A stretch of 49,737 nt of DNA from an uncultured Oscillospiraceae bacterium (lineage in GTDB: Bacteria; Bacillota; Clostridia; Oscillospirales; Oscillospiraceae). The position numbers and the translations under genes were made by a program. A model generated the notes under the pieces. It was not told where the DNA came from. It searched no databases and saw only the letters and a program-made list of their open reading frames with translations. The stretch lies in assembly GCA_944387825.1 (NCBI GenBank), contig CALXGL010000009.1, positions 1 through 49,737 on the forward strand, written 5' to 3'. Of this stretch, positions 9,133 to 44,792 are shown one piece after another (position 1 is the stretch's first letter; every line of letters starts with the position of its first letter).

Positions 9133-9137
9133 TTCCA

Positions 9138-10402: not shown

Positions 10403-10409
10403 AAACGGA

Positions 10410-10461: not shown

Positions 10462-10471
10462 GCGGACGCTC

Positions 10472-12363: not shown

Positions 12364-12375
12364 TCGCAGCACCTC

Positions 12376-12456: not shown

Positions 12457-12461
12457 GAGCT

Positions 12462-12734: not shown

Positions 12735-13411
12735 TGCGCGTCCTCCTCGTCAAAGGCCCTCAGGCCGGCGACAGAGCTTATAGGCAGCGAGAAGGTCACT
12801 GCGCCCGCCTCTGTGCCGGGGCCGCAGTTCTCGGTTATTGCGCGCATTATGGCGGCCTTTTCTATTGAGCGGGCGACAATGATTATAAGCTCTTTTTCGT
12901 CCGCCAGATGTACGCCGAGGAACTTTTCACTGAGCTTTCCGCCGGTGCCCTTCGCGTGAAGCACCGTGCCGCCGGACGCTCCCGCGGAACGGGCCGCATC
13001 CATAACCGGGTCGGTGTGGCCCTCGTTTATGACCGCCAGGATGAGCTCGTGGTCGAACTTGAAATCAGGCGCGCCTTCATCAGGCTTTGCGCCGCCGGTT
13101 ATATATGCCAATGTGCGTCCACCTCCTACGGACTTTATGGGTATTGCAAGCAGTATGCCGTTGCCGGGCACGTCAATGAAGAGCCTGCGCTTCGCGAGAC
13201 GCATGAGCTGGCCTGTCATGCTTCCGGAAGCGACGGTCATGAGAAGCGCTTTTTCCTTGGCCTCCAGGCCGTACAGGTCGAGCGTTTCGCTGCTTGCCGT
13301 GCCGCGCGCCAGCATGGCGAGCACAATAGGAAGGCCCTGGCCCTCAAACAGCTCCGACATGGCCTCGGCACGGTCACGGTCAACTACGGCCGCTATCAGA
13401 TTCAAAATCAT
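12731..13411 (-). CDS. Tandem PII-like (two ferredoxin-like repeats) protein, partner of the DUF1538 membrane protein
   Basis: Two related halves: LIAAVVDRDRAEAMSELFEGQGLPIVLAMLARGT and LILAVINEGHTDPVMDAARSAGASGGTVLHAKGT. ATGA start/stop overlaps are present at both ends. Confidence 0.7.
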   Translation of the reverse strand: MILNLIAAVVDRDRAEAMSELFEGQGLPIVLAMLARGTASSETLDLYGLEAKEKALLMTVASGSMTGQLMRLAKRRLFIDVPGNGILLAIPIKSVGGGRTLAYITGGAKPDEGAPDFKFDHELILAVINEGHTDPVMDAARSAGASGGTVLHAKGTGGKLSEKFLGVHLADEKELIIIVARSIEKAAIMRAITENCGPGTEAGAVTFSLPISSVAGLRAFDEEDAQ

Positions 13412-14949
13412 GCGCCCACCTCCCAGAGCTCTATCACGTCGTCGCCAAGGCTCTCGACAGCCTGCTCTAGCGCGGCTTCACGCTCGGCTGCGCGGCTGGA
13501 GCGCAGCTTGAAGATGACGCCCATAATCTGCACTGTTATGAGAGGAGTCATGGCCACGAGGGCTACAAGCCCGAAGGCGTCGGTCATGACGTTGCCGCCG
13601 GCCGCATCCGCCGCTCCCATGGCGAGAGGCAGCATAAAGGTCGCCGTCATGGGGCCGGAAGCGACGCCGCCGGAGTCGAAGGCGATGGCCGTAAACATTT
13701 TGGGCACGAAAAAGCTCAGCGTCAGCGCCAGCACATACCCGGGCACCAGGAACCAGAGTATGTTGATGCCGATGAGCACCCGCAGCATGGCCAGACCGTT
13801 GGCGGCGGCGATGGCGGCGGAGAGACTGATGCCCATAGCCTTTTCGCTGACCGCCCCGGCGCTCATCTCCTCAACCTGCCTGTTCAGCACGTGCACCGCG
13901 GGCTCCGCGCGGATTATGAACCAGCCCATAAGCATGGCGACCGGTACCAGCAGCCAGCTCCAGTCGCTTGCAGCTATTTCGCTGCCGAGCAGCGTGCCCA
14001 GGGACGAAAATCCGACGTTGACGCCGGTAAGAAAGAGCACCAGGCCGACATAGGTGTACAGCACGCCTATTACTATCTTCAGAAAGGGCAGGCGCCTGAG
14101 CTTGAGCGAGACAAGCTGAAAAATGAGGAAAATCACTACAATGGGAGCAAGAGCCATTGCAACCTCGAACATGTAGTGAGGTATGGCGGTTATGTAGCTT
14201 GTGCCCAGAGCGACGGTATCCGACCATGAGGTTACCGCCTGAGCGGACATGTCCGCCGTTTCGCCCTCGTAGGCGAAGCCGAGCGTGAGAACCGCCAGTA
14301 TCGGGCCTATGGAGCACAGGCCGACGAGGCCGAAGGAATCGCTCTCCGCGTTCTTATCCGAACGTATTGAGGCAACGCCGACGCCGAGCGCCATTATGAA
14401 CGGCACGGTCATCGGCCCCGTGGTTACTCCGCCGGAATCAAAGGCGACGGAGAGGAAGTCGGGGTCGGAAAAGGCTGCGACGGCAAATACTATGATGTAG
14501 AAGCCTATCAAAAGCCACTTGAGGTCAATTCCAAACAGTATGCGCAGCATGCTAAGCACCAGAAAGAAGCCCACGCCCACGCTTACCGTCAGCATAAGCA
14601 CCCAGGTGTTGATGTGCGGAACATTGTTGGCCAGCACCTGCAGGTCCGGCTCCGCGACAGTAATCGCTATGCCGAGAATGAAGCTGAGTACGATAATCAG
14701 CGGCAGATTGCGGGACTTTGTCATGCGCGAGCCGAGATGGTTTCCTATCGGAGTCATGCTCGCTTCCGTTCCGAGCGTGAAAAGCCCCATGCCGGCGATA
14801 AGCAATATGACCGCAATGACGAAAGCCAGCATAAGGTCGGTTGAAACCGGCACGAAGAAGAGACAGAGCAGCGCGACAATCAGGGCGATAGGCGCGACGG
14901 ACGCTACGGATTCACGAAGCTTTTCATTCAGTATTGTTTTTATCCGCAT
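13408..14949 (-). CDS. DUF1538-family polytopic membrane protein (internally duplicated), putative transporter of unknown substrate
   Basis: A repeated motif, AFDSGGVTTGPMTVPFIMALGVG in the first half and AFDSGGVASGPMTATFMLPLAMG in the second. 513 aa and very hydrophobic. Confidence 0.75.
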   Translation of the reverse strand: MRIKTILNEKLRESVASVAPIALIVALLCLFFVPVSTDLMLAFVIAVILLIAGMGLFTLGTEASMTPIGNHLGSRMTKSRNLPLIIVLSFILGIAITVAEPDLQVLANNVPHINTWVLMLTVSVGVGFFLVLSMLRILFGIDLKWLLIGFYIIVFAVAAFSDPDFLSVAFDSGGVTTGPMTVPFIMALGVGVASIRSDKNAESDSFGLVGLCSIGPILAVLTLGFAYEGETADMSAQAVTSWSDTVALGTSYITAIPHYMFEVAMALAPIVVIFLIFQLVSLKLRRLPFLKIVIGVLYTYVGLVLFLTGVNVGFSSLGTLLGSEIAASDWSWLLVPVAMLMGWFIIRAEPAVHVLNRQVEEMSAGAVSEKAMGISLSAAIAAANGLAMLRVLIGINILWFLVPGYVLALTLSFFVPKMFTAIAFDSGGVASGPMTATFMLPLAMGAADAAGGNVMTDAFGLVALVAMTPLITVQIMGVIFKLRSSRAAEREAALEQAVESLGDDVIELWEVGA

Positions 14950-27562: not shown

Positions 27563-28185
27563 CGGGGAAAGCACAGGAAAAGAAGACAGCGAGGGAACAG
27601 ACGCATCGCTGGTTTAACATCGTATATTCCATAGTTATACCTCTGGTCAAGCTGGTATTTCGCATTCGCTGCAGGGGCAGGGAGAATATTCCGCAGGGCC
27701 CTGCGGTGGTCTGTGCCAACCACTCCAATTTGCTTGACCCCCTTATTGCGGCGGGCGCCTTCGGAAAGAGGCACTTCATGCACTTTATCGCGAAGAGGGA
27801 GCTGCAAAACGTCCCGATTATAGGCAAGGTCATAGAATTGTGCGGCGTCTGCTTCGTAAACCGCGGAACCGGGGATATTACGGCTATGCGCAGCATGATG
27901 CGTTACCTTAAAAATGGGGAAAAAGTCTTTATATTCCCTGAAGGCACACGCGCGGAGGAGGACAACATGGTGGATGCTAAGACGGGAGCGGTCCGCCTCG
28001 CCTCCAAGCTGGATGTGCCCATAGTCCCGGTGTATATCCCTCGCCGCAAGCACGTTTTCGGGCGGATAGACGTGCTGATAGGCAGGCCGTATCGCGTAAA
28101 GGGCAGCAACCATGATGAGTATGAGTCCCTGTCGGACGGCATCATGGAGCATATCTATGAGTTGAGGGACGGTAAAAGCGCATGA
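27559..28185 (+). CDS. plsC: 1-acyl-sn-glycerol-3-phosphate acyltransferase
   Basis: NHSNLLDP (HxxxxD) and FPEGTR motifs. ATGA overlap with cmk. Confidence 0.85.
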   Translation: MTGKAQEKKTAREQTHRWFNIVYSIVIPLVKLVFRIRCRGRENIPQGPAVVCANHSNLLDPLIAAGAFGKRHFMHFIAKRELQNVPIIGKVIELCGVCFVNRGTGDITAMRSMMRYLKNGEKVFIFPEGTRAEEDNMVDAKTGAVRLASKLDVPIVPVYIPRRKHVFGRIDVLIGRPYRVKGSNHDEYESLSDGIMEHIYELRDGKSA

Positions 28186-30407
28186 GTACAATAACGGTGG
28201 CCGGGAGCGCCGGCTTCTGCTTCGGCGTGTCGCGCAGCGTGGAAATGGCGGAAGAGCAGCTGAAGGACGGCCCCTGCCTGAGCTTCGGCCCGCTTATTCA
28301 CAATGAGAACGTAGTGGAGCATCTCTCCGAGCTGGGCCTGAGGGTGATTTCTTCGCCGGATGAGGTGCGTTCGGGCGACCGCGTCATTATCCGTTCTCAT
28401 GGCGTGCCGTCGGCAGTGGAGGACGCTCTGCGTCAGGCCGGGGCGGAAATAGTAGACGCGACCTGCCCTAATGTCGCGCGCATACACAGGCTCGCGGCGG
28501 CAGCGAGCGCCGCCGGGCGCAGGGTTATAGTAATCGGCAGCTCCGGGCACCCGGAGGTGCAGGCCATCTGCGGCCGCTGTACCGGCGCATGCGTGGCCGG
28601 GAACGCACAGGAACTGGAAAAAATGCTCGAGACAAGCCCTGAAATGCGCTCGGAAGCCGTAACGGTTGTCGTACAAACCACTCAGACTGAGAAAAATCTG
28701 AAAGAGTGTGAAAAATTAATAAAAAAACTGTGTACAAACGCGGAAATATTTGATACAATATGTTCTGCTACGTCCACGAGGCAAAGTGAAGCAATCGAGC
28801 TGGCCTCAAAATGTGACGCAATGGTAGTCATCGGCGGCAGGGACAGTGCGAACAGCCTGCATCTCGCGCAGTTGTGCGCTGAGCGCTGCGCCAACACTCA
28901 GTTCGTTGAAAACGCCGAGACGCTGGATACAACAGCGTTAATTGGCGCAAACGCCATAGGCGTAACGGCGGGGGCGAGCGCTCCCTCGTGGATAATCAAG
29001 GAGGTACTGGAAAAGATGAGCGACGAGATCCTGATTCAAGAGAACCCGGCAGAAGAGACCGCGGCAGAGCCCGCAGTCGAAGCGGCAGAGCCCGTAACCG
29101 AGACGGTGGAAGAAACCGCCGCCCCTGTTGAAGAAGCCGCAAACGCGGTCGAGGAGACCGCAGCCGCAGAGAAGCCCGCGGCAGAGAAGAGCTTCGACGA
29201 AATGCTGGAGGATTCTCTTAAAACTATATATAATGGCGACAGGGTATCCGGCACTGTAGTGGCTATTACGCCCACTGAGGTCAGCGTGGACCTCGGCACG
29301 AAGTATTCCGCTTTCATTCCCACGACGGAGTTCACCAACGACGGCGCCGTCAACGTTGAGGACGCCGTTAAGGTTGGCGACAGCGTTGAGGCTATCGTAG
29401 TCCGCGTGAACGACATCGAGGGCACCGCCCAGCTCAGCAAGAAGCGTCTCGACGCGGCCAAGAGCTGGCAGGTCATCGAGCAGGCCCAGGCCGACGGCGA
29501 GATAGTCGAAGGCGTGGTAACCGAGGAGAACAAGGGCGGCGTCGTTGTCAACGTCGGCGGCGTGCGCGTGTTCGTACCGGCCAGCCAGAGCGGCCTGCCG
29601 AAGGACACTCCCATGACCCAGCTCGTTAAGACCACCGTCCGCCTGAAGATTACCGAGGTCAACCGCGGCCGCCGCCGCGTTGTAGGCTCCATCCGCGCCG
29701 TGCAGCAGAAGGAGCGCCGCGAGAAGGCCGACGCCGTCTGGAATGAGATAGAGGTTGGCAAGACCTATCACGGCACTGTGAAGAGCCTGACCAGCTATGG
29801 CGCTTTCGTCGACATCGGCGGTATTGACGGCATGGTTCACGTCAGCGAGCTGAGCTGGAACCGCATCAAGAACCCGGCCGAGGTAGTTTCCGTGGGCCAG
29901 GAGATTGACGTCTATGTTATCGGCTTCGACCGTGAGCAGCGCCGCATCTCCCTCGGCTTCAAGAAGGCCGAGGACAACCCCTGGACCAAGTTCGTCAACA
30001 CCTGCTCCGTCGGCGACGTGGTCAAGGTCAAGATTGTCAAGCTTATGCCCTTCGGCGCTTTCGCCGAGGTTATGCCCGGCGTTGACGGCCTTATCCACAT
30101 CAGCCAGATTGCCAACCGCCGTATCGGCAAGCCCGACGAGGTCCTGACCGTCGGCGACATCGTCGATGCGAAGATTACCGCTATCGACACTGAGAAGCAG
30201 AAGATAAGCCTCTCCATCCGCGCCCTGAGCGAGCCCGAACCGGCTCAGCGCCGTGAGCGCCGCGAGCGCAGCGAGCGTCCTGAGCGCGAGCATCGCGAGC
30301 GCCGTCCCATCGTCCCTGAAGAGGACGCCCTGGTTTATGAGGTCAGCGAGACCGGCGAAGCCAAGGGCAACATTCCCGACTTCGTTGACGACGAGACCGA
30401 GGAGTAA
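28182..30407 (+). CDS. ispH: Bifunctional 4-hydroxy-3-methylbut-2-enyl diphosphate reductase (IspH/LytB) / 30S ribosomal protein S1 fusion
   Basis: The N-terminal ~280 aa is LytB-like (GFCFGVSRSV, HNENVV, ATCPNV, DTICSATSTRQ). An Ala/Glu-rich linker follows, then four S1 repeats (e.g. GTVKSLTSYGAFVDIGGIDGMVHVSELS). Confidence 0.9.
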   Translation: MSTITVAGSAGFCFGVSRSVEMAEEQLKDGPCLSFGPLIHNENVVEHLSELGLRVISSPDEVRSGDRVIIRSHGVPSAVEDALRQAGAEIVDATCPNVARIHRLAAAASAAGRRVIVIGSSGHPEVQAICGRCTGACVAGNAQELEKMLETSPEMRSEAVTVVVQTTQTEKNLKECEKLIKKLCTNAEIFDTICSATSTRQSEAIELASKCDAMVVIGGRDSANSLHLAQLCAERCANTQFVENAETLDTTALIGANAIGVTAGASAPSWIIKEVLEKMSDEILIQENPAEETAAEPAVEAAEPVTETVEETAAPVEEAANAVEETAAAEKPAAEKSFDEMLEDSLKTIYNGDRVSGTVVAITPTEVSVDLGTKYSAFIPTTEFTNDGAVNVEDAVKVGDSVEAIVVRVNDIEGTAQLSKKRLDAAKSWQVIEQAQADGEIVEGVVTEENKGGVVVNVGGVRVFVPASQSGLPKDTPMTQLVKTTVRLKITEVNRGRRRVVGSIRAVQQKERREKADAVWNEIEVGKTYHGTVKSLTSYGAFVDIGGIDGMVHVSELSWNRIKNPAEVVSVGQEIDVYVIGFDREQRRISLGFKKAEDNPWTKFVNTCSVGDVVKVKIVKLMPFGAFAEVMPGVDGLIHISQIANRRIGKPDEVLTVGDIVDAKITAIDTEKQKISLSIRALSEPEPAQRRERRERSERPEREHRERRPIVPEEDALVYEVSETGEAKGNIPDFVDDETEE

Positions 30408-33850: not shown

Positions 33851-33861
33851 GGCCCCCTGTG

Positions 33862-33906
33862 AGCCGCGGCATCCTTGGAAGCAAGGATGCCGCGGCTTGC
33901 TTTTTT
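33862..33906 (+). terminator. Strong rho-independent terminator (left boundary of the hydrolase cassette)
   Basis: AGCCGCGGCATCCTTG-gaag-CAAGGATGCCGCGGCT, a 16-bp perfect stem, followed by TGCTTTTTT. Confidence 0.8.
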
Positions 33907-34064: not shown

Positions 34065-35057
34065 GTGGCAAGACGTGGTGCGGATTTAAAGACTCTGCTT
34101 GATATCCCTATGTGGGAAAAAATACAAGACGAGCTGGCGAAACTTACCGGCACCGCGATTATTACGGTAGACTATAAGGGTAATCCCATAACCAAGCACA
34201 GCGAGCGCACGGAGTTCTGCAGCGTTATACGCGAAAACCCGGTCTCAAGAAAACGCTGCTACCGCTGCGATGCCCTTGCCGGACTGGAGGCCGTGCGTTT
34301 GGGACGTCCCTACGTCTATCTCTGCCACTGCGGAATAGTAGACGTGGCCGTGCCTGTGATTGTCGGAGACAAATATCTGGGCGCCGTCATGTTCGGCGAA
34401 GTACGCCTGCCCAAAAACGCCGAGGCCGAGGAGAAGGTTGAGCGCCTCGTCAGCGAGATAAGCTCTTTCCAGGCCGAGGGCGACAGCATCCGCAGCGACC
34501 TCCTCGAGAAATATGAGCGCCTGCCCGAAATGGAGTACAGCCGCATAGTGCAGGTGGCCGATACCATCAAATCCATAGTCAATTATATCATCGACCGCGC
34601 GGTCAGCCGTGAAAACGAAATGCTTACATACGAGTATCTGCTCCGTGGGATATCGGAGCGCAATACCGTGCGCCCTCATGAGATTCAGGAGCACGCCGTA
34701 GCGGACGAACATCAGGAGGAGAGCAGCCTCCCGCAGAGCAGCGCGGTTTATCCTGCCGTTGAATACGTCAGGAGCCACATGCATGAAATGGTCAGGATGG
34801 TGGATATGGCGCACCTCTGCCATCTCAGCCCCAGCTACTTTTCACGTATTTTCCACCGCGATGTCGGCGAGAATTTTATCAACTGGATGAACCGCCAGAA
34901 GGTCGAGGAGGCCAAGCTCCGCCTGCGCGGCGGCAACGACACCGTAAATCAGATAGCGCTGGATCTGGGGTACATGGATTCCAGCTATTTTATCAATGTC
35001 TTCAGGCGGTTTGAAGGCATAACTCCGCTCGTATACAGGCAGTATAACGGGAAATGA
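34065..35057 (+). CDS. AraC-family transcriptional regulator with an N-terminal PocR-type sensory domain
   Basis: The PocR-like N-terminus is WEKIQDELAKLTGTAIITVDYKGNPIT...FCSVIR...CYRCDA...YLCHCGIVDVAVPVIVGDKYLGAVMFG. The C-terminal AraC HTH is LSPSYFSRIFHRDVGENF...IALDLGYMDSSYFINVFRRFEGITP. GTG start with RBS GGAGGAGGAG. Confidence 0.85.
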   Translation: MARRGADLKTLLDIPMWEKIQDELAKLTGTAIITVDYKGNPITKHSERTEFCSVIRENPVSRKRCYRCDALAGLEAVRLGRPYVYLCHCGIVDVAVPVIVGDKYLGAVMFGEVRLPKNAEAEEKVERLVSEISSFQAEGDSIRSDLLEKYERLPEMEYSRIVQVADTIKSIVNYIIDRAVSRENEMLTYEYLLRGISERNTVRPHEIQEHAVADEHQEESSLPQSSAVYPAVEYVRSHMHEMVRMVDMAHLCHLSPSYFSRIFHRDVGENFINWMNRQKVEEAKLRLRGGNDTVNQIALDLGYMDSSYFINVFRRFEGITPLVYRQYNGK

Positions 35058-35097
35058 CCTCTGACAGAAAAATTGTCGTCATGCACAATTATCAAGT

Positions 35098-35123
35098 ACT
35101 TGCTTTGAGCAAGTTATTTTTTT
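35098..35123 (+). terminator. Terminator-like hairpin after the regulator gene
   Basis: ACTTGCT-ttg-AGCAAGT followed by TATTTTTTT. Confidence 0.55.
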
Positions 35124-35139
35124 ATCTATTTCGCACAAC

Positions 35140-35185
35140 AAATATGACATATAAATCAAATATGACGTATGCATATGTCATATTT
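35140..35185 (+). promoter_or_regulatory. Three copies of an 11-bp motif (two direct, one inverted): candidate AraC/PocR operator
   Basis: AAATATGACAT (35140-35150), AAATATGACGT (35158-35168) and the inverted ATGTCATATTT (35175-35185). Copies 2 and 3 form a 28-bp near-palindrome centred on TGCA. Confidence 0.5.
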
Positions 35186-35207
35186 GAGGACTATTTTGAA
35201 TATTTAC

Positions 35208-35258
35208 TTTGCAGCAGCGCTTTTATATCCTAAATGTAGAAAGCGCAGCTGCTGCAAA
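35208..35258 (+). other. Long leader hairpin between the operator repeats and the RBS of the first hydrolase gene
   Basis: TTTGCAGCAGCGCTTT ... AAAGCGCAGCTGCTGCAAA, a 16 bp stem with a 3-nt bulge, followed by an A-run rather than a T-run. Confidence 0.5.
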
Positions 35259-35283
35259 AAAACTATAAAAGGAAGGGATGAAA

Positions 35284-37494
35284 ATGAAAAAGTTCTTCAA
35301 GTCGCATCTGTTTACGGCTGTTATGTGCCTGTGCCTTGTGGTTATGCTGATAACCGGACTTGTCGTTTCCGGGACGCTGTCGGACCACGGGGACTACATT
35401 GTGCGAGAAACGAGAATACAGAACGACGGCTACACTCTGACCGGTACGCTGTATGTACCCAAGGCTGCGCTTGAGAAGGACGACGATATTACATCGTACA
35501 AGAATGGAAACAACACCAATAAAGTGCCCGCAATCATCACGCATGGCGGAGGAAGCGCGAACAGATACTTCCAGCAGAATCACATTGTCGAACTCGTGAA
35601 GAGGGGCTTCGCCGTATTTGCGATAGACGCCTACACTCACGGGGAATCCGACAATTACACCGAGGGCTGGGGCATCTATTCACATGTGCATGACGCCGTC
35701 GAATACGTCCACAGCCTGAACTTCGTAGACGACGCCCAGGTGGGCTACGTGGGACATTCGCAGGGCGGCAGCGCCACAATGATGGCGCTTAAAGTTTATG
35801 CGGGCTATTATACGCTGGAAGACGAGCTCTTCAATATGCTGCACGACGAACTGGGAGTTGAGATCACGCGTGAGCAGGTCGAAGCCCAGGACCCCGACGC
35901 GGTTGCAGCCGGGCTCGACGAGCATGACCGCGGATACTACGAGGGACGCAAGATTGAGATAACGGAGAGCTATAACGACCTTCGCATAAGCTTTGGCGTA
36001 ATGGAAGGCATGGCCACCGGCACCGCGCCTCCGATAACCTCCGGAGAGAGGAACAATGTTGACCCGATGGTGGTCGAGGTAGGCGGAGTGCCCGTAATGA
36101 GGGATATACAGGCCAATATATGCACCTCCATAGCGTCAACCGACGAGTCCACCGGAGTAAACGCGCTTGGAGGACTGGGGATTTCCGGCACGGACGAACT
36201 GCCCGAGGCCGAAATAACCCGCACCTTCTATGGCACGGGCGAGGAACCGGTTGCGCTAGACACGCTCTATTCTGTGAATATGTCGTCCACGGAGGAGCGG
36301 CTTGCGAGCACGGTGATAGGAACATTCGATGAAAACAGCTGGCAGGATGCCGCCGTGCAGGAGGCCGCGGCAAACAAGACGCTGCGCCTGCTCGTCATGT
36401 ATCCCGGCTGGCACAACACCAACCACTATTCTGAGACCGACATAAGCACGGTGGCCAACTTCATGTCCATCGCAGCCGGATATAATAACGGCTATATCTC
36501 CGAAACCGGCGGCGAAAATGCCGCGGCGTTCGGCGACACCGGCACGTGGAAGACCACGGTCGCGTTCAATGCCATCGCTTTCATTGCGGCCATAATCTTC
36601 TGCGTATCGCTGCTCGCGGTGCTGCTCAGGACCAGATCCTTTGAGTGCGCCTGCAATGAGCTTCCGGCCCCGCAGGCCAGCGCAAAATCGCCGCTTACCT
36701 GGGTGTTTACTCTGGTAGTCGTCATCCTGCCGGTGCTTTTAATAACGCCGCTGATGAACAACAGCCTGATGCCCTCGTCCTGGTTCGCAAAGTTCGACCG
36801 CATAAATCCCATAGCCTTCTGGTCGATGAGCTGCGCCGTAATACTGCTTGTGCTCATAATCATCAAGTGGAATGTGCTGGACAAGAAGAATACTGCGCTG
36901 AAGTTCAGAGATTATTACGGCCTGCGCTGCAGCGTGAAATCCGTGCTGCTTACGCTGCTCGCGGTGTTCCTCGTAAGCGTGGCCCTGACGGACGTCATCA
37001 ATCTCTATTACAAGGCGTTTAACGGCGCGAACTTCATGATAGCGCTGCCGCTGCTGAATATACCCATCCAGCTCACGCCTATATCTGCCGACAGGTACAT
37101 AGACTGGGTGTGCTATTTCCTGTATTTCCTGCCGTACTGGATAGTGGGCGGCATGCTTGTAAATTCGGCCCGCATGAAGGATATGCCCGGCTGGCTGAAC
37201 ACAATAATTCTAGCTCTGCTCAACTTCCTGCCGATTGCCGTATTCATTTACGTACAGTACTTCGGCTATCTGGGCAACGGAGGCACAGCGCCCGTCCTCG
37301 GATTGAACTGGGCCACGATAATTCAGATGCAGGGCCTTGTCCTGATAGTTCCCATAGCGGTTATTGTCTCCAGGGTGATGTATAAGCGCACGGGCTCCTG
37401 CCTGACCGGCGCGATACTTAACTCCATGATGTTCTCTCTGCCGTTCATGTGCAACGTGATTGCGTATACCGTCAGCAGTATGCCCAGTCAATAA
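35284..37494 (+). CDS. Membrane-anchored alpha/beta serine hydrolase fused to a C-terminal eight-helix membrane module (paralogue A)
   Basis: N-terminal anchor, THGGGS, and nucleophile elbow GHSQGG (Ser codon 35758-35760). There is a conserved GWHNT His and about 300 aa of C-terminal hydrophobic helices. RBS AGGAAGGG favours the ATG at 35284 over 35278. Confidence 0.8.
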   Translation: MKKFFKSHLFTAVMCLCLVVMLITGLVVSGTLSDHGDYIVRETRIQNDGYTLTGTLYVPKAALEKDDDITSYKNGNNTNKVPAIITHGGGSANRYFQQNHIVELVKRGFAVFAIDAYTHGESDNYTEGWGIYSHVHDAVEYVHSLNFVDDAQVGYVGHSQGGSATMMALKVYAGYYTLEDELFNMLHDELGVEITREQVEAQDPDAVAAGLDEHDRGYYEGRKIEITESYNDLRISFGVMEGMATGTAPPITSGERNNVDPMVVEVGGVPVMRDIQANICTSIASTDESTGVNALGGLGISGTDELPEAEITRTFYGTGEEPVALDTLYSVNMSSTEERLASTVIGTFDENSWQDAAVQEAAANKTLRLLVMYPGWHNTNHYSETDISTVANFMSIAAGYNNGYISETGGENAAAFGDTGTWKTTVAFNAIAFIAAIIFCVSLLAVLLRTRSFECACNELPAPQASAKSPLTWVFTLVVVILPVLLITPLMNNSLMPSSWFAKFDRINPIAFWSMSCAVILLVLIIIKWNVLDKKNTALKFRDYYGLRCSVKSVLLTLLAVFLVSVALTDVINLYYKAFNGANFMIALPLLNIPIQLTPISADRYIDWVCYFLYFLPYWIVGGMLVNSARMKDMPGWLNTIILALLNFLPIAVFIYVQYFGYLGNGGTAPVLGLNWATIIQMQGLVLIVPIAVIVSRVMYKRTGSCLTGAILNSMMFSLPFMCNVIAYTVSSMPSQ

Positions 37495-37525
37495 GCATAA
37501 GGTCAAAAAGAAAGGGTGAAAAAGT

Positions 37526-39634
37526 GTGAAAAAAGAAAAACTGTTCACATTGAAAACGCTGCGGGGCTGCATGAGGCTGTTCGCGCTGATGCTGTGCCTG
37601 GTGCTCGTTTTCAGCTTCGTCGCCCGTCTGATTTCAACGGACGGCGGCAAAGTAAAGATCAGCCGTGTGTCTATCGATTCGAGGGGCGCAATCATAGACG
37701 CGGACCTCTATTATCCCGTCGGAACCGACGACACGGATAAGCTGCCTGCGGTAATCGTAGCGCATGGCGGCGGCGTGGAAAAGGGCGTCGTCCGCGGAAC
37801 GGCCGAGGAGCTGGCCAGAAGGGGCTTCGTTGTCCTGAATCCCAATGCCTATGGCGTCTCCATGAGCGAGCAGCCTGTGTATGACGAAGGCGGCCAGGGC
37901 ATAGACGGCTTCAACAACCAGCTTACGCCCAGCGGCATCTACGACTGCCTGACCTTCCTCAGGACGCTCAACTTCGTCGATCAGACCCGAATAGGCCTGA
38001 CCGGTCACTCCATGGGCTCCAGGCGTACGGCCTACGCCAGCATCATGGACTGCGGCCACTACACTTATAACGACCTCATGATAAATGTTCTGTATGATAC
38101 CTTCGGACAGACCTTTACAGAGGAAGAAATCACTATGGACGCCGACGCTCTGGCCGCCGAAAGGCTCAATGAAGACCAGCTGAAGCACTATAACGAACTC
38201 AAGGAAGAGACAAGGACCTATTACGATACCAGGGTCAAAGCCCTTTGCCTTATGGGCAGCGACGCCAACCTTATCGGCATACCCGAAACCGTGACGGTCG
38301 GCGGACATGAAGTCGTCCGCAACTGCCAGGTCAATATAGGCATAGTAGACGGCCAGTGGGACTATAGCTACAGGGACTACCCCGAGCGCGACACCACGAA
38401 GGAGGCCTGGCACACCGAGGACATTCAGGCCGAGACCTGGTACTCCATTGACGACGTCAACGGCACCAGCACGCTTATTGGCAGCATCAGCGAAGTCCAG
38501 GCTCAGGATAACGAGGAGTTCCAGTCGGCTCTCTACAACCGCACCCTCAGGAGCTTCCAGCTCAACAAGGAGACCCATTCCAAGAACTTCTTCTCCAACG
38601 CCACTACCTCCGACGTGGTAAAATTCTTTGAGCAGACTCTTGGATACAATAACGGCGAGCTTGGCGCAGCCGACGCCAACCCGGTATCCGCCGACAGCAT
38701 GATTTTCATGGTCCGTGAGGTCTTCAACTTCCTCGCGATGCTGGCCATGGTCGGCATGCTTATGCCTCTGGCAGGCATGCTGCTCAACTGCAAGTTCTTC
38801 AAGCCCTGCACCGCTGCCGTGAGCGTCAAGGTCTCGGCTCCGGTGAACAAAAAGAAATACTGGCTGTTTGCGCTGCTGGGCATTGTCATCGAGTTCATAG
38901 CCATACATCTTGCGAACGGAGTATTCGTGCCCGGCCTGCCTGCCACAAGCTTCCTGCCGTTCTTCCCGAGCTGGTGGCTGACCTTCATATTCATTGCGAT
39001 TCTCGCAGTTGGCTCCGCCGTCATGCTTGTCCTGTTCAAGGTCACCGACAAGCAGAACTGCTCCTTCTCCGCGCTGAACGTAAAGATGAAGGTCGTAAAC
39101 GTGCTCAAGACGGTACTGCTTTCAGCGATACTCCTGGCCGCCGCCTATCTGCTGCTGACTCTGGTAATCGACCTCTTCAACGAGGACTTCCGTCTCTGGA
39201 TGGCTGTGTTCACCGAGATGAAGGTGGAGTACTGGGGCTACGTCTGGAGGTATGCTCTCTGCATGCTGCCGTGCTTCCTGCTCATAGGCGCGAGCACAAA
39301 CTACACCATCCGTACGGACATGGCTCAGTGGAAGGATACGCTTATCACCGTCGTGGTGAACTCTCTCGGCGTATATCTCTGCTGCCTCGTCAACTACCTC
39401 ATGCTCGTCGGCGCCGACAATCTCTGGAGCTCGTTCATCTCCACCTACGGCATGCTGGTGATTGTGCCCATTACGGTCTACATTACCAGGAAAATGTACC
39501 TGCTCACCAACAGCATCTGGCTCGGCGCTCTTACGAACGCCTTCCTCGTCAGCTGGACTATCTGCTCGGCTATGGGCCTCAACTGCAACATATATAACGC
39601 GCAGACCTGGTTCAGCAACTTCTTCAGCCTGTAA
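37526..39634 (+). CDS. Membrane-anchored alpha/beta serine hydrolase fused to a C-terminal eight-helix membrane module (paralogue B, diverged)
   Basis: N-terminal anchor, AHGGGV, GHSMGS (Ser codon 38009-38011), ETHSK His and a C-terminal polytopic module. GTG start. Confidence 0.8.
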   Translation: MKKEKLFTLKTLRGCMRLFALMLCLVLVFSFVARLISTDGGKVKISRVSIDSRGAIIDADLYYPVGTDDTDKLPAVIVAHGGGVEKGVVRGTAEELARRGFVVLNPNAYGVSMSEQPVYDEGGQGIDGFNNQLTPSGIYDCLTFLRTLNFVDQTRIGLTGHSMGSRRTAYASIMDCGHYTYNDLMINVLYDTFGQTFTEEEITMDADALAAERLNEDQLKHYNELKEETRTYYDTRVKALCLMGSDANLIGIPETVTVGGHEVVRNCQVNIGIVDGQWDYSYRDYPERDTTKEAWHTEDIQAETWYSIDDVNGTSTLIGSISEVQAQDNEEFQSALYNRTLRSFQLNKETHSKNFFSNATTSDVVKFFEQTLGYNNGELGAADANPVSADSMIFMVREVFNFLAMLAMVGMLMPLAGMLLNCKFFKPCTAAVSVKVSAPVNKKKYWLFALLGIVIEFIAIHLANGVFVPGLPATSFLPFFPSWWLTFIFIAILAVGSAVMLVLFKVTDKQNCSFSALNVKMKVVNVLKTVLLSAILLAAAYLLLTLVIDLFNEDFRLWMAVFTEMKVEYWGYVWRYALCMLPCFLLIGASTNYTIRTDMAQWKDTLITVVVNSLGVYLCCLVNYLMLVGADNLWSSFISTYGMLVIVPITVYITRKMYLLTNSIWLGALTNAFLVSWTICSAMGLNCNIYNAQTWFSNFFSL

Positions 39635-39657
39635 TAAGAGGAAAACCGGACTCATTG

Positions 39658-39683
39658 CAGGAGCCGCCAAGCGGCGGCTCCTG
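39658..39683 (+). other. GC-rich intercistronic hairpin without a U-tract
   Basis: CAGGAGCCGCC-aagc-GGCGGCTCCTG, an 11-bp perfect stem 24 nt after the paralogue B stop. Confidence 0.5.
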
Positions 39684-39750
39684 TGTCATAAGCAAAACGG
39701 GCAGCAAACATAAAGCAAATATTTACAGCCGCGCTGAGGAGGGAACGTAA

Positions 39751-41943
39751 ATGAAAAGCTGGCTTAAAAGCAATCCTTTTGTATCGATTTTGTGTATATG
39801 CCTTGTGGTGATGTTTGTAACGGGCCTTGTCGTGTCAAATACCTTGACAGACAATGGGAATTACCTTGTAAAAGAGACCAGAATTCAGAAAGACGGCTAT
39901 ACGCTCGCGGGCACGCTGTTTATACCCAAAGCGGCGCTTGAAAAAGACGGAGACGTCACAGCGGCCAAAAATGGAAACAATGTCAACAAAGTTCCCGCCG
40001 TCATAACTCTCGGCGGCGGCACGGCGAACCGGTATTTCCAGCAGAACCATGTGGTTGAGCTGGTCAAGCGCGGATTCGTTGTGTTCGCCATAGACGCGTA
40101 CAATCATGGCGAGTCCGATGATTTCTCGGGCTGGAAAGTATATTCGCACATCCATGACGCGCTCGAATACGTCCACAGCCTCAACTATGTGGACGACGCG
40201 CAGGTCGGCTTCTTCGGGCACTCGCAGGGCGGCAGCGCAACTATGCAGGCGCTTAAAAACTATGCCGGGTACTATACGCTGGAGGACGAAATCCTGAACA
40301 TGCTGCACGACGAGCTGGGAGTCGAGGTCACGCGTGAACAGGTGGAAGCTCAGGACCCGGACGCTGTGGCTCAGGTGCTCGATGAGCACGACCTGGGCTA
40401 TTACGAGGCGAGGAAACAGGAAATAATAGACAGCTACAACGACATGCGCGTCAGCTTCGGCGTCATGGAGGGCATGGCAAACGGCTCCGCGCCTCCCATA
40501 GGCTCCGGTGAGACGAACGACGTAACCCCGACGGTCGTAGAGGTGGCCGGGGTGCCCGTGTTCAGGGACATCCAGGCTAATATAGCCACCTCCATGTCGC
40601 TCACCGACGAAACCGTAGGCGTGAACGCGATTGGATTTATGGGCCTGGACGGCGCGGACGAGCTGCCCTCAGCCGAGTCTATCCGAGCTCTGTACGGCAC
40701 CGGCGAAGACGCCGTTGAGCTTGGCATGCTTTACTCCGTGAATATGTCTTCCACGGAAGAGCAGCTTTTGAGCACGGCGCTGGGCGAATTCAACGCCGAT
40801 ACTTGGGCAGGCGAGGAAGCCGCGCAGGCCGCGGCCGACAAGAGCCTGAGGCTCATGGTAATGTACCGCGGCTGGCACAACACAAGCCACTACAGCCAGC
40901 TGGATATAAGCACCGTGGCGAGCTTCATGACTCTGTCCACCGGCTTCAACAACGGCTACGTCGCTGAGACCGGCGGCTCCGGAGCCATAGGCTTTGATGA
41001 TGTGGGCACGTGGAAGGTTACAACGGCCGGAAACGCGGTTGCGTTTTTCGCGCTGATAATCTTTGCGCTCAGCTTCCTGTGCGCCGTTATAAAGACGCCG
41101 ACCTTCGCCGCCGCGGACAGGGCTGTGGTCGAGGCTCCGGCGAGCAGGAAGTCTCCGATGGCATGGATATCCATGATATTCTTCGTCGTACTGCCGGTTG
41201 TGCTTATGCCGGTGATAATGAACAACAGCCCGATTAAGTCGTCCTGGATTACGAGGTTCGAAGAGATTAACGCCATAGTCTTCTGGGCTCTCTGCTGCGC
41301 GGTAATCCTGCTTGCGCTGATAATACTCAAGTGGAATCTTTACGACAAAAAGCGCGTGAGCATAAGCTTCAGGGACTTCTATGGCCTTAACTGCAATGTC
41401 AAATCGGTGCTGTTTATGCTGCTCGCCGTGTTTTTTACCGCGGTGACGGTCATTGTCGTGATAAACATCTACTCGCAGACCTTCAGCAGCGCCAACTTCA
41501 TGATAGCGATGCCGTATCTGAACGTCCCCATGATGTTCACGCCGGTGTCGGCCGGCAGGTATCTGGACTGGATTTGCCTCTTTATAACATTTATTCCGTA
41601 CTGGATTATCGGAGGCATGCTTGTCTGCTCGGCCAGAATGAAAGACATGCCAAACTGGCTGAACACCATAATCCTCACAATAATCAACTTTATACCCGTC
41701 GCCATATTCGTGTATGTGCAGCATTTCGGGTATAACGGCAACGGCGGAACACAACCTGTGCTCGGAATAAACTGGGGCGTGCTTATCAACATGTCCAGTC
41801 TGGTTCTCGTCATACCGGTGTCCGTGGTTATGTCGAGGGTGATATATAAGCGCACCGGCTCCAGCCTGCCCGGGGCAATATTCAACGCGATGCTCTTTAC
41901 GCTTCCGTACCTGTGCACCTGCCATTCGTGCGCGACGTTTTGA
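39751..41943 (+). CDS. Membrane-anchored alpha/beta serine hydrolase fused to a C-terminal eight-helix membrane module (paralogue C, close to A)
   Basis: N-terminal anchor, TLGGGT, GHSQGG (Ser codon 40222-40224), GWHNT and a C-terminal polytopic module. RBS GAGGAGGG lies 7 nt upstream. Confidence 0.8.
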   Translation: MKSWLKSNPFVSILCICLVVMFVTGLVVSNTLTDNGNYLVKETRIQKDGYTLAGTLFIPKAALEKDGDVTAAKNGNNVNKVPAVITLGGGTANRYFQQNHVVELVKRGFVVFAIDAYNHGESDDFSGWKVYSHIHDALEYVHSLNYVDDAQVGFFGHSQGGSATMQALKNYAGYYTLEDEILNMLHDELGVEVTREQVEAQDPDAVAQVLDEHDLGYYEARKQEIIDSYNDMRVSFGVMEGMANGSAPPIGSGETNDVTPTVVEVAGVPVFRDIQANIATSMSLTDETVGVNAIGFMGLDGADELPSAESIRALYGTGEDAVELGMLYSVNMSSTEEQLLSTALGEFNADTWAGEEAAQAAADKSLRLMVMYRGWHNTSHYSQLDISTVASFMTLSTGFNNGYVAETGGSGAIGFDDVGTWKVTTAGNAVAFFALIIFALSFLCAVIKTPTFAAADRAVVEAPASRKSPMAWISMIFFVVLPVVLMPVIMNNSPIKSSWITRFEEINAIVFWALCCAVILLALIILKWNLYDKKRVSISFRDFYGLNCNVKSVLFMLLAVFFTAVTVIVVINIYSQTFSSANFMIAMPYLNVPMMFTPVSAGRYLDWICLFITFIPYWIIGGMLVCSARMKDMPNWLNTIILTIINFIPVAIFVYVQHFGYNGNGGTQPVLGINWGVLINMSSLVLVIPVSVVMSRVIYKRTGSSLPGAIFNAMLFTLPYLCTCHSCATF

Positions 41944-42015
41944 CCGGTTTTGAGCAGGCAGAATGCGGCGTTGCAGAAACATGCCGGATGAATCTATAAA
42001 GGAACGGAGAAAAAT

Positions 42016-43254
42016 ATGATACTAGATACCTCCAAGTATACTGGATTATGCGAATGCGGAAGGACACATGAGCTGCGCACCAAGCTTGTCGTGTGTGAAG
42101 CCGGGGCGCTGCAGAAATTCGACAAGTATATGCAGGATTGCGGCCTTTCAGGCTTCAGTACCATCATATATGACACAAATACGTACAATTTGCCAGGAGT
42201 AACCCGTCCGGCTGCTGGGCAGGAAATAGTCCTCGATGCGGCGGGCCTGCACAGCGAGAAGGGGCTCATTGAAAACATGATGAAGGACTTCGTCAGAAAG
42301 CCCGACTACGTAGTGGCTGTCGGCGGAGGCACGATAATGGACTTCGGACGGTACAGCGCGTACCAGCTGGGGATACCATTCGTTGCGGTGCCTACAATCG
42401 TGAGTTCTGATGGTTTTACGGCAAATATATGCTCGATTATAATCGACGGCCAGAAGAAATCGATTCCCATGCTCGCGCCGGACGCAGTTATATGCGATTT
42501 GAATGTCGTATCCTCGGCGCCTGAATTCCTTACTGTGGCCGGCGTGCAGGACATTCTGGCAAAGTACATATCCATAGCCGACTGGAAAATAGCCAGTCTG
42601 GTGACAGGCGAATACTTTTGCCCGCGCGTATGCGCAATGGCTCAGGAGGCGCTTGACATCATGGCCGGCTGCGCGGAGGAACTCAGGAGGGGCGAAAAGC
42701 CGGATCATGAGCGGCTCGCCTACGCGCAGATGCTGTCCGGCCTGACCATGCAGATACTCTCCAATTCCCGCGCGGCTTCCGGCGCGGAGCATCTGATTGC
42801 GCACCTTGTTGAAATGAAGCCCAGAGGCTTTGAAAATGCCCACGGACTTCACGGCGAGTGCGTAGGTGTGGGCACGGTAATATGCGCGGAGGAATATCAC
42901 CGCCTGGCCATGAACGAGACTATTGAAACGAAGCCGTTTGAGCCGCTTGACCGGCAGTGGGTGGAATATGTGTTCGGCAGCATGACGGATGGAATCATGA
43001 AGGAAAACGAGAACGACGTACTCATGACCGTTGACACAGAAAAACTCAGGAACTGCTGGCCGGAAATCCGCAGGATAATATCTGAAATACCTTCTGCCGA
43101 TGAAATCAGGACGCTTTTCAAAGAGATTGGAGCAAAATACACCTTGTCTGATCTCGGCATAGACGAGAGCCTGGGGCGGGAGGTCCTGAAAATATCCGCG
43201 GCGATACGCAACCGCATGACCCTGTGCCGGCTTGAACGGCTGATTGTGGAGTGA
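42016..43254 (+). CDS. Iron-containing-ADH-superfamily enzyme, sn-glycerol-1-phosphate dehydrogenase (AraM/EgsA)-like
   Basis: [24 protein letters not shown] and SGAEHLIAH...HGECVGVG match the G1PDH/glycerol dehydrogenase-type nucleotide and metal-binding pattern. 412 aa. Confidence 0.65.
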
Positions 43255-43259
43255 TGCAG

Positions 43260-44741
43260 ATGAAATATATAATGACTTTGGACCAGGGCACAACCAGCAG
43301 CCGCTGCATACTTTTTGACCTCAACGGGTCGGCGGCGGCCATGGCGCAGCGCGAATTTACTCAGTATTTTCCGCAGCCCGGCTGGGTTGAACATGACCCT
43401 GAGGAAATTTGGGACACCACGCTGGCGGTCTCCAGAGAAGCCATGTTCAACGCCGGCGCACGGCCGGAGGACATAGTGGCCATTGGCATTACCAACCAGC
43501 GCGAAACCACTGTTTTGTGGGAAAAGACATCCGGCCGGCCCGTGGCCAACGCTATTGTCTGGCAGTGCAGGCGTACGTCGAAAATCATTGACAAACTTGT
43601 ACAGGACGGCGCGGGGGATATGATACGCGAGAAAACCGGACTGGTGCCGGACGCGTATTTCTCCGCTTCAAAGATAAAGTGGCTGCTGGACACCGTCCCG
43701 GGCGCCAGGAAAATGGCGGATAATGGCGAGCTGCTGTTCGGTACGATTGACAGCTGGCTCATATGGAAGCTGACCGGCGGAAAGGCGCATGTAACCGACT
43801 ATACGAACGCGAGCCGGACCATGCTGTTCAACATCGAAGAGCTGCGCTGGGATACCGACCTGCTCAAGCTTCTGGACATACCCGAGTGCATACTTCCCGA
43901 GGTGAAGCCGTCCTCCTGCGTATACGGATACAGCGTAAGAGAGCTCTACGGCGGAGAAATTCCGATAGCCGGCGCGGCGGGCGACCAGCAGAGCGCCCTG
44001 TTCGGACAGTGCTGCTTCCTTCCGGGCGAGATGAAGAACACATACGGCACGGGCTGCTTCCTGCTTATGAACACGGGCAGTGAGCGCGTCCGCAGCAAAA
44101 ACGGGCTTGTCACAAGCATTGCGGTGGGATATCAGGACCATGTGGAGTATGCGCTGGAGGGCAGCATCTTCACTGCAGGCTCCGCCGTCCAATGGCTGAG
44201 GGATGAGCTGAGCATAATACCGACGGCATCCGACAGTGAAAGGATAGCCTGCTCGGTGGCCGACACAGCCGGCGCGTATATCGTTCCCGCGTTCACCGGG
44301 CTGGGCGCGCCGTACTGGAAGCAGGACGCGCGCGGAGTAATAACCGGCGTAACACGCGGCTTTTCACGCGCACACCTTGTGAGGGCTACGCTGGAATCCC
44401 TGGCGTATCAGACGCACGACATTGTGCGCGCGATGGAGCGGGACGCGAAAATGGATATAACCGCCCTGCGTGTGGACGGCGGAGCAAGCGCGAACAACTT
44501 CCTCATGCAATTCCAGGCGGATATCCTAAACGCCGACGTTATACGGCCCGAGTATATAGAGACTACCGCTCTAGGCGCGGCATATTTGGCCGGCCTGGCC
44601 ATGGGAGTGTGGAGCGGTACGGCTGAAATACGGAGCCTGCGTGCATCCGACCAGGTGTTCAAAAGCGCAATGGCTGCAGAAAAGCGCGAAGAGCTTTTGA
44701 AGGGCTGGCAGAAGGCCGTGCGCTGCGCGCTCGTGGATTGA
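43260..44741 (+). CDS. glpK: Glycerol kinase
   Basis: [43 protein letters not shown], and [13 protein letters not shown]. Confidence 0.92.
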
Positions 44742-44759: not shown

Positions 44760-44792
44760 CAAGGACGCCTGCTCTTGCGGCAGGCGTCCTTG
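44760..44792 (+). terminator. Terminator-like hairpin after glpK (weak U-tract)
   Basis: CAAGGACGCCTGC-tcttgcg-GCAGGCGTCCTTG, a 13-bp perfect stem. Confidence 0.45.

Follow-up and report, generated by a model that had tools for sequence, protein, structure and literature searches.

Gut and rumen anaerobes do not oxidize long-chain fatty acids, and for them lipolysis serves mainly as a source of glycerol; to our knowledge, the route by which the abundant Oscillospiraceae reach the glycerol held in dietary and host acylglycerols is essentially uncharted. Glycerol operons are in themselves already ordinary, the closest described ones being the glpP-glpFK-glpD genes of Bacillus subtilis and the clostridial clusters in which glpK stands with genes for a flavin adenine dinucleotide (FAD)-dependent glycerol 3-phosphate (G3P) dehydrogenase system (FAD-G3PDH), a Pyr_redox protein and a DUF1667 protein, and the same is true of membrane-anchored esterases. 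Here we analyze a stretch of 49,737 nucleotides (the window) from an uncultured Oscillospiraceae bacterium (GCA_944387825.1, contig CALXGL010000009.1, positions 1-49,737 of the forward strand), in which a block of six genes codes for a PocR/AraC-type regulator, three related proteins of 700-740 amino acids (aa), a dehydrogenase (DH) of the glycerol 1-phosphate (G1P) dehydrogenase branch and the glycerol kinase GlpK. The family of the three large proteins is labeled HYD, and the window copies Hyd1, Hyd2 and Hyd3. The novelty lies in two things: a widespread, unnamed family of fusion proteins whose membrane domain has not been described before and which occurs in glycerol operons lacking the facilitator GlpF, and a cassette, recurrent in Oscillospiraceae, in which this family is joined to a G1P dehydrogenase (G1PDH)-type enzyme. 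On balance, we lean towards reading the block as an inducible locus in which the HYD proteins release glycerol from esters at the membrane and the glycerol is converted to dihydroxyacetone phosphate (DHAP).

The nearest parallels to the build of the HYD proteins come from Staphylococcus aureus. In the SagB-SpdC (6u0o) and LnsA-LnsB pairs, as in the HYD proteins, an eight-helix and apparently non-catalytic membrane protein is capped on the outside by an enzyme, and in both pairs the capping hydrolase or acyltransferase works on a membrane-embedded substrate. SpdC, a CPBP-family protein without catalytic function, partners the SagB glucosaminidase. In the other pair, LnsA forms a cap over the outer surface of LnsB, whose CPBP motifs are dispensable, and phosphatidylglycerol supplies the acyl chain (PMC13559823). 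The other components have described counterparts as well. The regulator shares its sensory domain and AraC helix-turn-helix (HTH) with Salmonella PocR, the 1,2-propanediol-responsive AraC-family regulator of the pdu/cob regulon, and DH shares the Fe-ADH_2 fold and its best profile and PDB matches with G1PDHs, a group that includes archaeal EgsA and B. subtilis AraM. The first-pass annotation of the window, made from the DNA letters alone, did not recognize the gene combination as a characterized system; a search of the literature on the HYD family or the cassette found nothing relevant. The combination itself is not unique: it recurs in Oscillospiraceae, where the HYD genes vary in number.

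The link to glycerol catabolism is much stronger than the window alone showed, and it comes from the surroundings of HYD genes in other genomes (the fetched homologous loci are labeled L001-L098). Eighty species-representative loci were picked by HYD motifs alone, and their neighbors were clustered and named by Pfam. Some 21 of the 80 (~26%) have glycerol-catabolism genes within 6 kb, against a background of ~1% for a random 14-kb window that is our own back-of-envelope estimate and not a computed value. Recurrent neighbors are the GlpP antiterminator, a DAO+Fer2_BFD G3P dehydrogenase, Pyr_redox_2 and DUF1667 proteins, GlpD, Dak1/Dak2 and an Fe-ADH glycerol dehydrogenase, and the routes that HYD genes accompany are four and non-homologous: GlpK with FAD-G3PDH/DUF1667, GlpK with GlpD, GldA with Dak, and GlpK with a DH of the window type. 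As a rule HYD and glpK share a strand and are less than 200 nt apart, an arrangement seen in Clostridia, Chloroflexota (L070, L079) and several unclassified bins. The Microbacterium locus L088 has a GlpD-like gene at 119 bp from the HYD gene and glpK 3 kb away on the opposite strand, and in an archaeal locus (L068) the distance from HYD to a GlpD-like gene is 3.2 kb.

The proposed association of the large genes with PocR/AraC and glpK genes is likewise seen in many other genomes. Contigs with a 59%-identical Hyd1 homolog read PocR/AraC-HYD-GlpK, an order found in L004-6, L048 and L049; PocR-HYDx2-DH-GlpK occurs in L012 and L089/90, PocR-HYD-DH-GlpK in L091/92, and PocR-GldA-Dak(Dak1/Dak2)-HYD in L007, with the same genes clustered in L064 and L078. 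Orthologs of the window regulator, 55-62% identical, adjoin HYD genes in L004, L012, L048 and L049, Pfam-called PocR/AraC genes do so in L089-L092, and the PocR-HYD pairing is kept alongside glycerol genes in at least 12 related loci. Cassettes of the PocR-HYD type occupy differing genomic contexts in other genomes. The one in L007 (3057-15570) has MobC/relaxase genes on one side and a gene for a large serine recombinase on the other, a setting which suggests that cassettes of the PocR-GldA-Dak-HYD type can move horizontally.

No glycerol facilitator and no G3P oxidase gene had been noticed in the window, and searches for GlpF, GlpD and FAD-G3PDH indeed gave no homolog there (best tblastn E for GlpF, 0.76); Dak, GldA and GlpP homologs were not found elsewhere in the window by homology search either. 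The same lack extends to the 20-odd glpK loci fetched from other genomes and searched, none of which has glpF: with one E. coli GlpF sequence as the query, tblastn returned no MIP/GlpF match at E<=1e-3 anywhere in L001-L088 and none in L098. HYD is the sole predicted membrane protein in the otherwise complete glp clusters of L010, L051, L056, L063 and L087, and the gene order of L077, GlpP-GlpK-HYD-DH, parallels the B. subtilis glpP-glpFK-glpD arrangement, with HYD in the place of glpF. Two further observations concern these loci. A LOG/'possible lysine decarboxylase' gene (PF03641) directly follows DH in GlpK-HYD-DH-type loci (L014 3582-4220, L035 10680-11276, L077 11782-12375) and is absent from the window. 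L051, titled Corallococcus sp. MAG (metagenome-assembled genome), has a Firmicutes-style glpP-G3PDH-DUF1667-glpK-HYD cluster, and L009, titled Bacteroides thetaiotaomicron, matches a Clostridia-like HYD at 45%, just as P0018 does; in either case the cause may be a binning error.

The HYD proteins had been described as a membrane anchor, a hydrolase ectodomain and an eight-helix membrane module in one chain, and the AlphaFold2 (AF2) model of Hyd1, built on 21 relatives (predicted local distance difference test, pLDDT, 83.8; predicted TM-score, pTM, 0.85), agrees with this description. It has an N-terminal anchor helix (residues 2-34), a hydrolase domain (~40-400) with a helical insertion (180-233), and eight membrane helices (423-726) with a beta-hairpin (586-599) in the membrane part. 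Hyd2 is 26-29% identical to Hyd1 and Hyd3, and its relatives, 30-56% identical, are found in many Clostridia and Spirochaetes. Lysine and arginine number 17-18 in the predicted cytoplasmic segments versus 2 in the predicted external loops, and the hydrolase domain is strongly acidic; both features fit the predicted topology, in which the anchor is oriented N-in and the hydrolase lies outside.

The sole Pfam signal in each HYD protein is a weak alpha/beta-hydrolase match around the GHSxG motif, with Abhydrolase_6 and Abhydrolase_1 above the Pfam gathering scores in Hyd1, and the nucleophile elbow reads GHSQG or GHSMG in all three paralogs. The hydrolase fold that had been expected of the ectodomain emerges with confidence from the AF2 model, which Foldseek matches to many esterases at probability 1.0. 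The predicted catalytic triad is read from conservation among 73 diverse HYD members: all 73 have Ser161 and His379, the only invariant positions of the domain, and position 289, which comes after the strand expected to bear the acid, holds Asp or Glu in 68/73 (93%). Because of this conservation the family is probably under selection as an active serine hydrolase. The Foldseek matches of the Hyd1 ectodomain are feruloyl esterases, cutinase/PETases, acetyl-xylan esterases and TTL lipase (E ~1e-5, 9-17% identity), the last of which (7q4j) is a structure with a monoacylglycerol intermediate, and a profile search against PDB sequences agrees with the structure search. Hydrolase_4 (PF12146), the Pfam family of the monoglyceride lipases, is the commonest family match (58/73 members at E<=0.01). 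Its gathering score of 27 bits is not reached by Hyd1 (23.2), Hyd3 (21.5) or Hyd2 (16.9), and the matches count as a lead, not as membership, for a possible monoglyceride-lipase assignment.

In the profile and structure comparisons made, the C-terminal module stands out as a predicted new membrane domain, represented in neither Pfam nor the PDB. Pfam gave no match to it, whether the module was searched alone or within 73 HYD members, and no PDB sequence matched it. Modeled alone (pLDDT 78.8), it has SpdC (6u0o_A) as its only notable Foldseek match, at probability 0.97 but with E 0.04 and TM-scores of 0.36-0.44; all other matches have probabilities below 0.35, and known transporter folds were rejected at this point, as the matches to bile-acid and Na+/H+ transporters and to G-protein-coupled receptors were all in that lower range. 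The most conserved motif of the module, R-x-x-Y-K-R-T-G-S-x-L-x-G-A-x-x-N (from R699), lies where helices 7 and 8 meet the cytoplasmic side. The helices contain few conserved polar residues, and the module has no conserved Glu-Glu or His and no catalytic motif that could be recognized. The part of the motif that reads KRTGSxLxGAxLN resembles RKTGSVYACFLVHGVLN, the C-terminal motif of a CPBP protein in L031, where a genuine CPBP/Rce1-like gene (7276-7977; PF02517, 54 bits) lies 0.5 kb downstream of the HYD gene. The module is nonetheless not filed as CPBP/Abi, because the CPBP His is replaced by Asn, neither EExxxR nor FxxxH is conserved, and hhalign against a real CPBP protein gives a probability of 0.1; PF02517 matches were absent from the 73 members and from isolated C-terminal domains, and no PDB sequence match supported such membership. 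We keep the resemblance to CPBP proteins as a functional lead, by analogy.

The family is large and nearly nameless. A word-indexed search found 23 close Hyd1 relatives, all without names; a pattern scan in which each species was represented by one genome gave 230 HYD relatives; and a profile built from only the module recovered 527 clusters (50% identity) out of 1.84 billion representatives. In nearly all of the full-length hits listed, the module forms the C-terminal 300 residues of a 590-795 aa protein and is preceded by an N-terminal part of 300-400 aa. Open reading frame (ORF) calls in the 80 loci show the same layout of anchor, hydrolase and 7-10 hydrophobic segments, and because nearly all the listed full-length matches share it, the module appears to be dedicated to the HYD fusion. 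Carriers include Clostridia, Christensenellales, Spirochaetes, Acholeplasmatales, Chloroflexota, Microbacterium (Actinobacteria), haloarchaea and Asgard archaea, and the only database names of members are 'hypothetical protein' and 'alpha/beta hydrolase family protein'. Archaeal copies with anchor, hydrolase and multiple transmembrane (TM) segments occur in L068 (Promethearchaeia; 6012-7778), in L057 (Halomicrobium) and on a Haloarcula litorea plasmid (L097; 7980-9716), the last annotated merely as 'alpha/beta fold hydrolase'. Annotated plasmids gave two HYD matches, named 'alpha/beta fold hydrolase' or unannotated, with no glycerol genes nearby.

The two cytoplasmic enzymes differ in how closely they fit named families. 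GlpK was correctly named, since it exceeds the cut-offs of both TIGR01311 (717 versus 590 bits) and NF000756 (796 versus 498 bits) and contains FGGY_N and FGGY_C. The dehydrogenase had been called AraM/EgsA-like. Its placement in that branch stands, as G1PDHs are its best matches in both NCBIfam (NF002022) and the PDB (9h4x, 4rgq), whereas its 171.5 bits fall short of the equivalog cut-off of 413. The SDG, EH..H and HGE motifs, presumably metal-binding, are conserved in the alignment, and DH scores 138-99 bits to solved G1PDHs versus <=52 bits to glycerol dehydrogenases; because it is closer to the former and keeps the motifs, a phosphorylated substrate seems likelier than free glycerol. We conclude that DH is a predicted metal-dependent polyol-phosphate-type dehydrogenase, functionally tied to GlpK in the window, and DH and GlpK together could carry glycerol to DHAP. 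DH and the FAD-G3PDH system never occur together in HYD-glpK loci, which suggests that DH replaces the flavoprotein system; alternatively, the pattern may be a mere lineage effect.

DH orthologs, 73-77% identical, are abundant in Oscillospiraceae. Two of the five contexts read have the order PocR/AraC-HYD(x1-2)-DH-GlpK-HAD-IIA-PMT_2, in which the number and subfamily of the HYD genes differ from those of the window, and L095 has DH-GlpK-HAD-PMT without HYD. L089-L092, L095 and L096 (~8001-13450 each) share a DH-(GlpK)-HAD-IIA-PMT_2 block with genes for a PlsC-like acyltransferase, a short-chain dehydrogenase/reductase (SDR) and a PemK toxin upstream, the variable parts being GlpK and HYD (0, 1 or 2). 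The adjacency of DH and HAD-IIA in these sister loci resembles the araL-araM pair of B. subtilis. Because DH travels with the HAD-IIA phosphatase and the PMT_2 membrane glycosyltransferase, sometimes without HYD or GlpK, its role may not be simply catabolic. A sugar-type operon that also carries a DH ortholog (L093/L094) comprises genes for an ABC transporter, DeoC, AP_endonuc_2, three GFO_IDH_MocA oxidoreductases, GH1 and ABM.

All six plus-strand ORFs of the block were found where the first-pass annotation had placed them (Table 1). The strong terminator that it had put upstream is borne out by the stem, the T-run and the folding z, and its core-gene flanks by profile identities for IspD, IspF, the cysteine-desulfurase-family protein and CdaA. 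Intergenic gaps along the block are 220, 31, 116 and 72 nt, and DH and GlpK are 5 nt apart or overlapping, the likely GlpK start lying 5 nt past the DH stop codon. As had also been noted, the ribosome-binding site of glpK lies within the 3' end of the DH gene (GGAG at 43248-43251), and folding analysis gives no terminator-like structure in the 72-nt gap between Hyd3 and DH. Two points of the earlier picture need correction. The hairpin taken to end the block after glpK exists, but because no T-run lies directly behind it, it is not a canonical intrinsic terminator, and a terminator scan of the window did not call it as one. The idea of one cassette from regulator to glpK holds for the gene block but probably not for a single transcript: because of the hairpin and T7 run behind the regulator gene and the hairpin between Hyd2 and Hyd3, the block is probably a regulator gene, itself probably a separate transcription unit, plus a five-gene operon Hyd1-Hyd2-Hyd3-DH-GlpK. 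The Hyd2-Hyd3 hairpin may act as a partial terminator, or it may affect how the mRNA is processed or how stable it is within the presumed operon.

The regulator was rightly read as a PocR-type sensor joined to an AraC half, as both PF10114 and HTH_18 (PF12833) match; against the NCBIfam PocR equivalog NF047788 it scores 181 bits, with a cut-off of 500. The CAAATATGACATAT repeats upstream of Hyd1 are a candidate binding site for this regulator. They were rejected as a conserved operator, being absent upstream of HYD in L004, L012, L048 and L049. No riboswitch or other known RNA was matched in Rfam at E<=1 between 33500 and 45200, and the cassette was not called a compositional island, its GC content of ~0.54 differing too little from the 0.54-0.63 of the flanks. 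Further upstream, the window encodes a bifunctional fusion of IspH and ribosomal protein S1 (28182-30407; NF000907, 684 bits). Taken with the DH and GlpK orthologs of 70-77% identity, this fusion agrees with a Clostridia origin of the Oscillospiraceae type for the contig.

Table 1. Genes and sequence elements of the block and its boundaries (positions in the window)
Feature	Position	Strand	Basis
Strong intrinsic terminator after the cysteine-desulfurase-family gene; left block boundary	33859..33906	+	19-bp stem + T-run; -39.2 kcal/mol, z -6.8
PocR-sensor/AraC-HTH transcriptional regulator, 330 aa	34065..35057	+	PF10114 E 3.6e-45, PF12833 E 1.6e-19
Terminator-like hairpin + T7 run behind regulator gene	35098..35124	+	Scan: ACTTGCTTTGAGCAAGT then TATTTTTTTA; weak by energy
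Three CAAATATGACATAT copies upstream of Hyd1; candidate operator	35139..35186	.	Two direct copies 18 nt apart + one inverted
Hyd1, 738 aa: TM anchor, predicted extracytoplasmic alpha/beta-hydrolase (Ser161/Asp289/His379), 8-TM module	35278..37494	+	Pfam, AF2, Foldseek, lysine + arginine distribution
Hyd2, 702 aa, divergent paralog of widespread ~710-aa subfamily	37526..39634	+	Architecture and catalytic residues as Hyd1/Hyd3
12-bp GC-rich hairpin without T-run, Hyd2-Hyd3 gap (CAGGAGCCGCCA...)	39657..39684	+	Folding analysis
Hyd3, 730 aa	39751..41943	+	64% identical to Hyd1
DH, Fe-ADH_2 dehydrogenase, G1P-dehydrogenase (EgsA/AraM) branch, 412 aa	42016..43254	+	PF13685 E 1e-26
Glycerol kinase GlpK	43260..44741	+	ORF opens GTG at 43251; likely start ATG 43260; TIGR01311 717 bits
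14-bp GC hairpin after glpK; right boundary	44760..44792	+	-35.8 kcal/mol including second small hairpin; z -5.5

Starting from gene content, fold, conserved triad, topology signal and linkage to glycerol catabolism, we propose the following mechanism for the locus. The PocR/AraC regulator, probably transcribed on its own, would control the operon Hyd1-Hyd2-Hyd3-DH-GlpK; its likely ligand is glycerol or some small diol or triol related to it. Its products would include three outward-facing HYD esterases of differing specificity, the hydrolase domains of which would strip acyl groups from glycerol esters, most likely mono- and diacylglycerols or other membrane-partitioning esters. Acylglycerols are favored as substrates because what GlpK, GldA and Dak require is free glycerol rather than a glycerophosphodiester. 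The membrane module would position the hydrolase on a membrane-embedded substrate, as non-catalytic CPBP scaffolds do for SagB and LnsA, or it would conduct a product, or both, and the locus could thereby do without GlpF. GlpK would trap the released glycerol, and GlpK and DH together would convert glycerol to DHAP, with the kinase acting first and DH then oxidizing glycerol phosphate, or with the two steps in reverse order.

Several observations weigh against this picture. About three-quarters of the HYD loci have no glycerol gene nearby, and tandem HYD arrays occur with no glycerol genes close by (six genes in L019, 14-12112; three each in L017 and L055); the arrays look like diversification of substrate specificity, and because most loci lack glycerol genes and many are tandem arrays, the substrates of the whole family must belong to more than one class. 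The fold matches of the ectodomain do not separate a lipase from a feruloyl or acetyl esterase, a cutinase or an S9/S15/S33 peptidase. DH belongs to the G1P branch while GlpK makes sn-G3P, a stereochemical mismatch if DH is a true G1PDH. L096 reads PocR-DH-HAD-IIA-PMT_2, with neither HYD nor GlpK, and in L093/L094 (1-9239) a 73%-identical DH ortholog ends the sugar-type operon, again with no GlpK or HYD, and because of this ortholog DH is not restricted to the glycerol cassette. The search for GlpF, moreover, had one E. coli sequence as its query, and the functions proposed for HYD members are read from fold, conservation and synteny.

These reservations give room to other explanations, the first of which starts from the missing facilitator. 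The HYD module might itself act as a channel or transporter, moving glycerol or else the intact ester, with the hydrolase as its gate or front end, and so substitute for GlpF. That HYD is the only predicted membrane protein of several complete glp clusters, that the glpK loci searched have no glpF and that HYD sits at the GlpF position in L077 all speak for it, and the most conserved module motif lies at the cytoplasmic face, where it would be suited to hand-over to a cytoplasmic partner. We nevertheless regard it as unlikely, since the module is unlike known channel and transporter folds (its best match is the non-transporting SpdC, and transporter matches have probabilities below 0.2), few polar residues are conserved inside its helices, and the invariant serine and histidine point to catalysis as the selected function. 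A bolder version would make HYD a new class of hydrolysis-coupled uptake system that replaces GlpF in bacteria and some archaea and, at the same time, DH a recruited NAD-linked catabolic glycerol-phosphate dehydrogenase. Both halves together seem to us quite unlikely. If they were true, an eight-helix conduit would hand ester-released glycerol straight to cytoplasmic GlpK, and the recruitment of DH would imply that the stereospecificity that defines the G1P-dehydrogenase family has been switched or relaxed.

The branch to which DH belongs can also be read at face value. DH would then be truly G1P-forming, DH and GlpK would supply glycerol phosphates for the remodeling of envelope lipids or teichoic acids, and the HYD proteins would deacylate or transacylate the cell's own membrane lipids. 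The sister loci fit this idea, with a HAD-IIA phosphatase and PMT_2 after DH and a PlsC-like acyltransferase and an SDR before it, as does L096, which keeps PocR-DH-HAD-PMT in the absence of HYD and GlpK; the fold analog SpdC, moreover, and the CPBP protein LnsB (PMC13559823) serve envelope enzymes. Yet other taxa carry HYD in plainly catabolic operons, with the G3P-responsive GlpP, FAD-G3PDH or GldA and Dak, no HAD, PMT or PlsC gene adjoins the block in the window, and a HYD copy number of 0-3 under an inducible regulator suits scavenging more than housekeeping, all of which makes envelope remodeling distinctly improbable in our view. Finally, the HYD proteins could be esterases or peptidases for a glycerol-free substrate, such as feruloyl or acetyl esters of plant walls, polyesters or peptides, and their adjacency to glycerol genes fortuitous. 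The top PDB matches (feruloyl and acetyl-xylan esterases, PETases/cutinases, S9/S15 peptidases) would suit such substrates, as would the many loci without glycerol genes and the alpha-amylase genes near two HYD members. Fortuitous adjacency strikes us as hardly credible, however, given that the association recurs across bacterial phyla (and in the single archaeal locus L068, with its GlpD-like gene 3.2 kb off), that it involves four non-homologous glycerol routes with tight same-strand spacing, and that it reaches ~26% of loci where our rough estimate for random windows is ~1%.

If glycerol release at the membrane is indeed what the HYD proteins of the window do, the locus gives a testable role to a nameless protein family of ~530 clusters at 50% identity. 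It also suggests that the fusion of an enzyme to an eight-helix scaffold is used for nutrient acquisition, the two having hitherto been separate partners in staphylococcal cell-wall and lipoprotein pathways, and it poses the puzzle of what a G1P-dehydrogenase-type enzyme does in translational coupling with a kinase whose product is the other enantiomer of glycerol phosphate. Cultured carriers of HYD genes are at hand in Anaerobacterium chartisolvens DSM 27016, Pseudoflavonifractor sp. MSJ-30, Subdoligranulum variabile, Microbacterium sp. Marseille-Q6965, Halomicrobium katesii and Haloarcula litorea.

Set beside the described systems, the locus appears as a recombination of familiar parts around an unfamiliar one. 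With classical glp operons the window shares a bona fide GlpK and an enzyme predicted to be able to reach DHAP, related HYD loci share the GlpP antiterminator and G3PDH genes with them, and small-molecule-responsive control, predicted for the window, is common to both; in contrast to them, the window has no GlpF, HYD-containing cassettes having one to three HYD genes instead, and it has a PocR/AraC regulator in place of GlpP/GlpR and an Fe-ADH of the G1PDH branch in place of a flavoprotein G3PDH. The regulator differs from Salmonella PocR in falling below the equivalog cut-off, in controlling no pdu/cob genes and in pairing with HYD and glycerol genes, and DH differs from EgsA and AraM in its sub-cut-off score, in its translational link to a kinase that forms the opposite enantiomer and in showing no link to ether-lipid genes. 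With soluble esterases and lipases (7q4j, Est1E 2wtm, PET46 8b4u, E. coli YcjY 5xb6) the HYD ectodomain shares the fold, the GHSxG elbow and the Ser-Asp-His triad, and the helical lid after the nucleophile helix is common to HYD and the soluble Hydrolase_4/monoglyceride lipase, feruloyl-esterase and cutinase groups. At 9-17% identity to these enzymes, HYD adds the N-terminal anchor, insertions that bring the domain to ~390 aa and the fused eight-helix module, and no solved relative has an anchor or a membrane module. Compared with SagB-SpdC and LnsA-LnsB, lastly, the HYD proteins have no sequence relationship to either pair, unite enzyme and scaffold in one polypeptide, and stand in a context of glycerol catabolism rather than of the cell wall.

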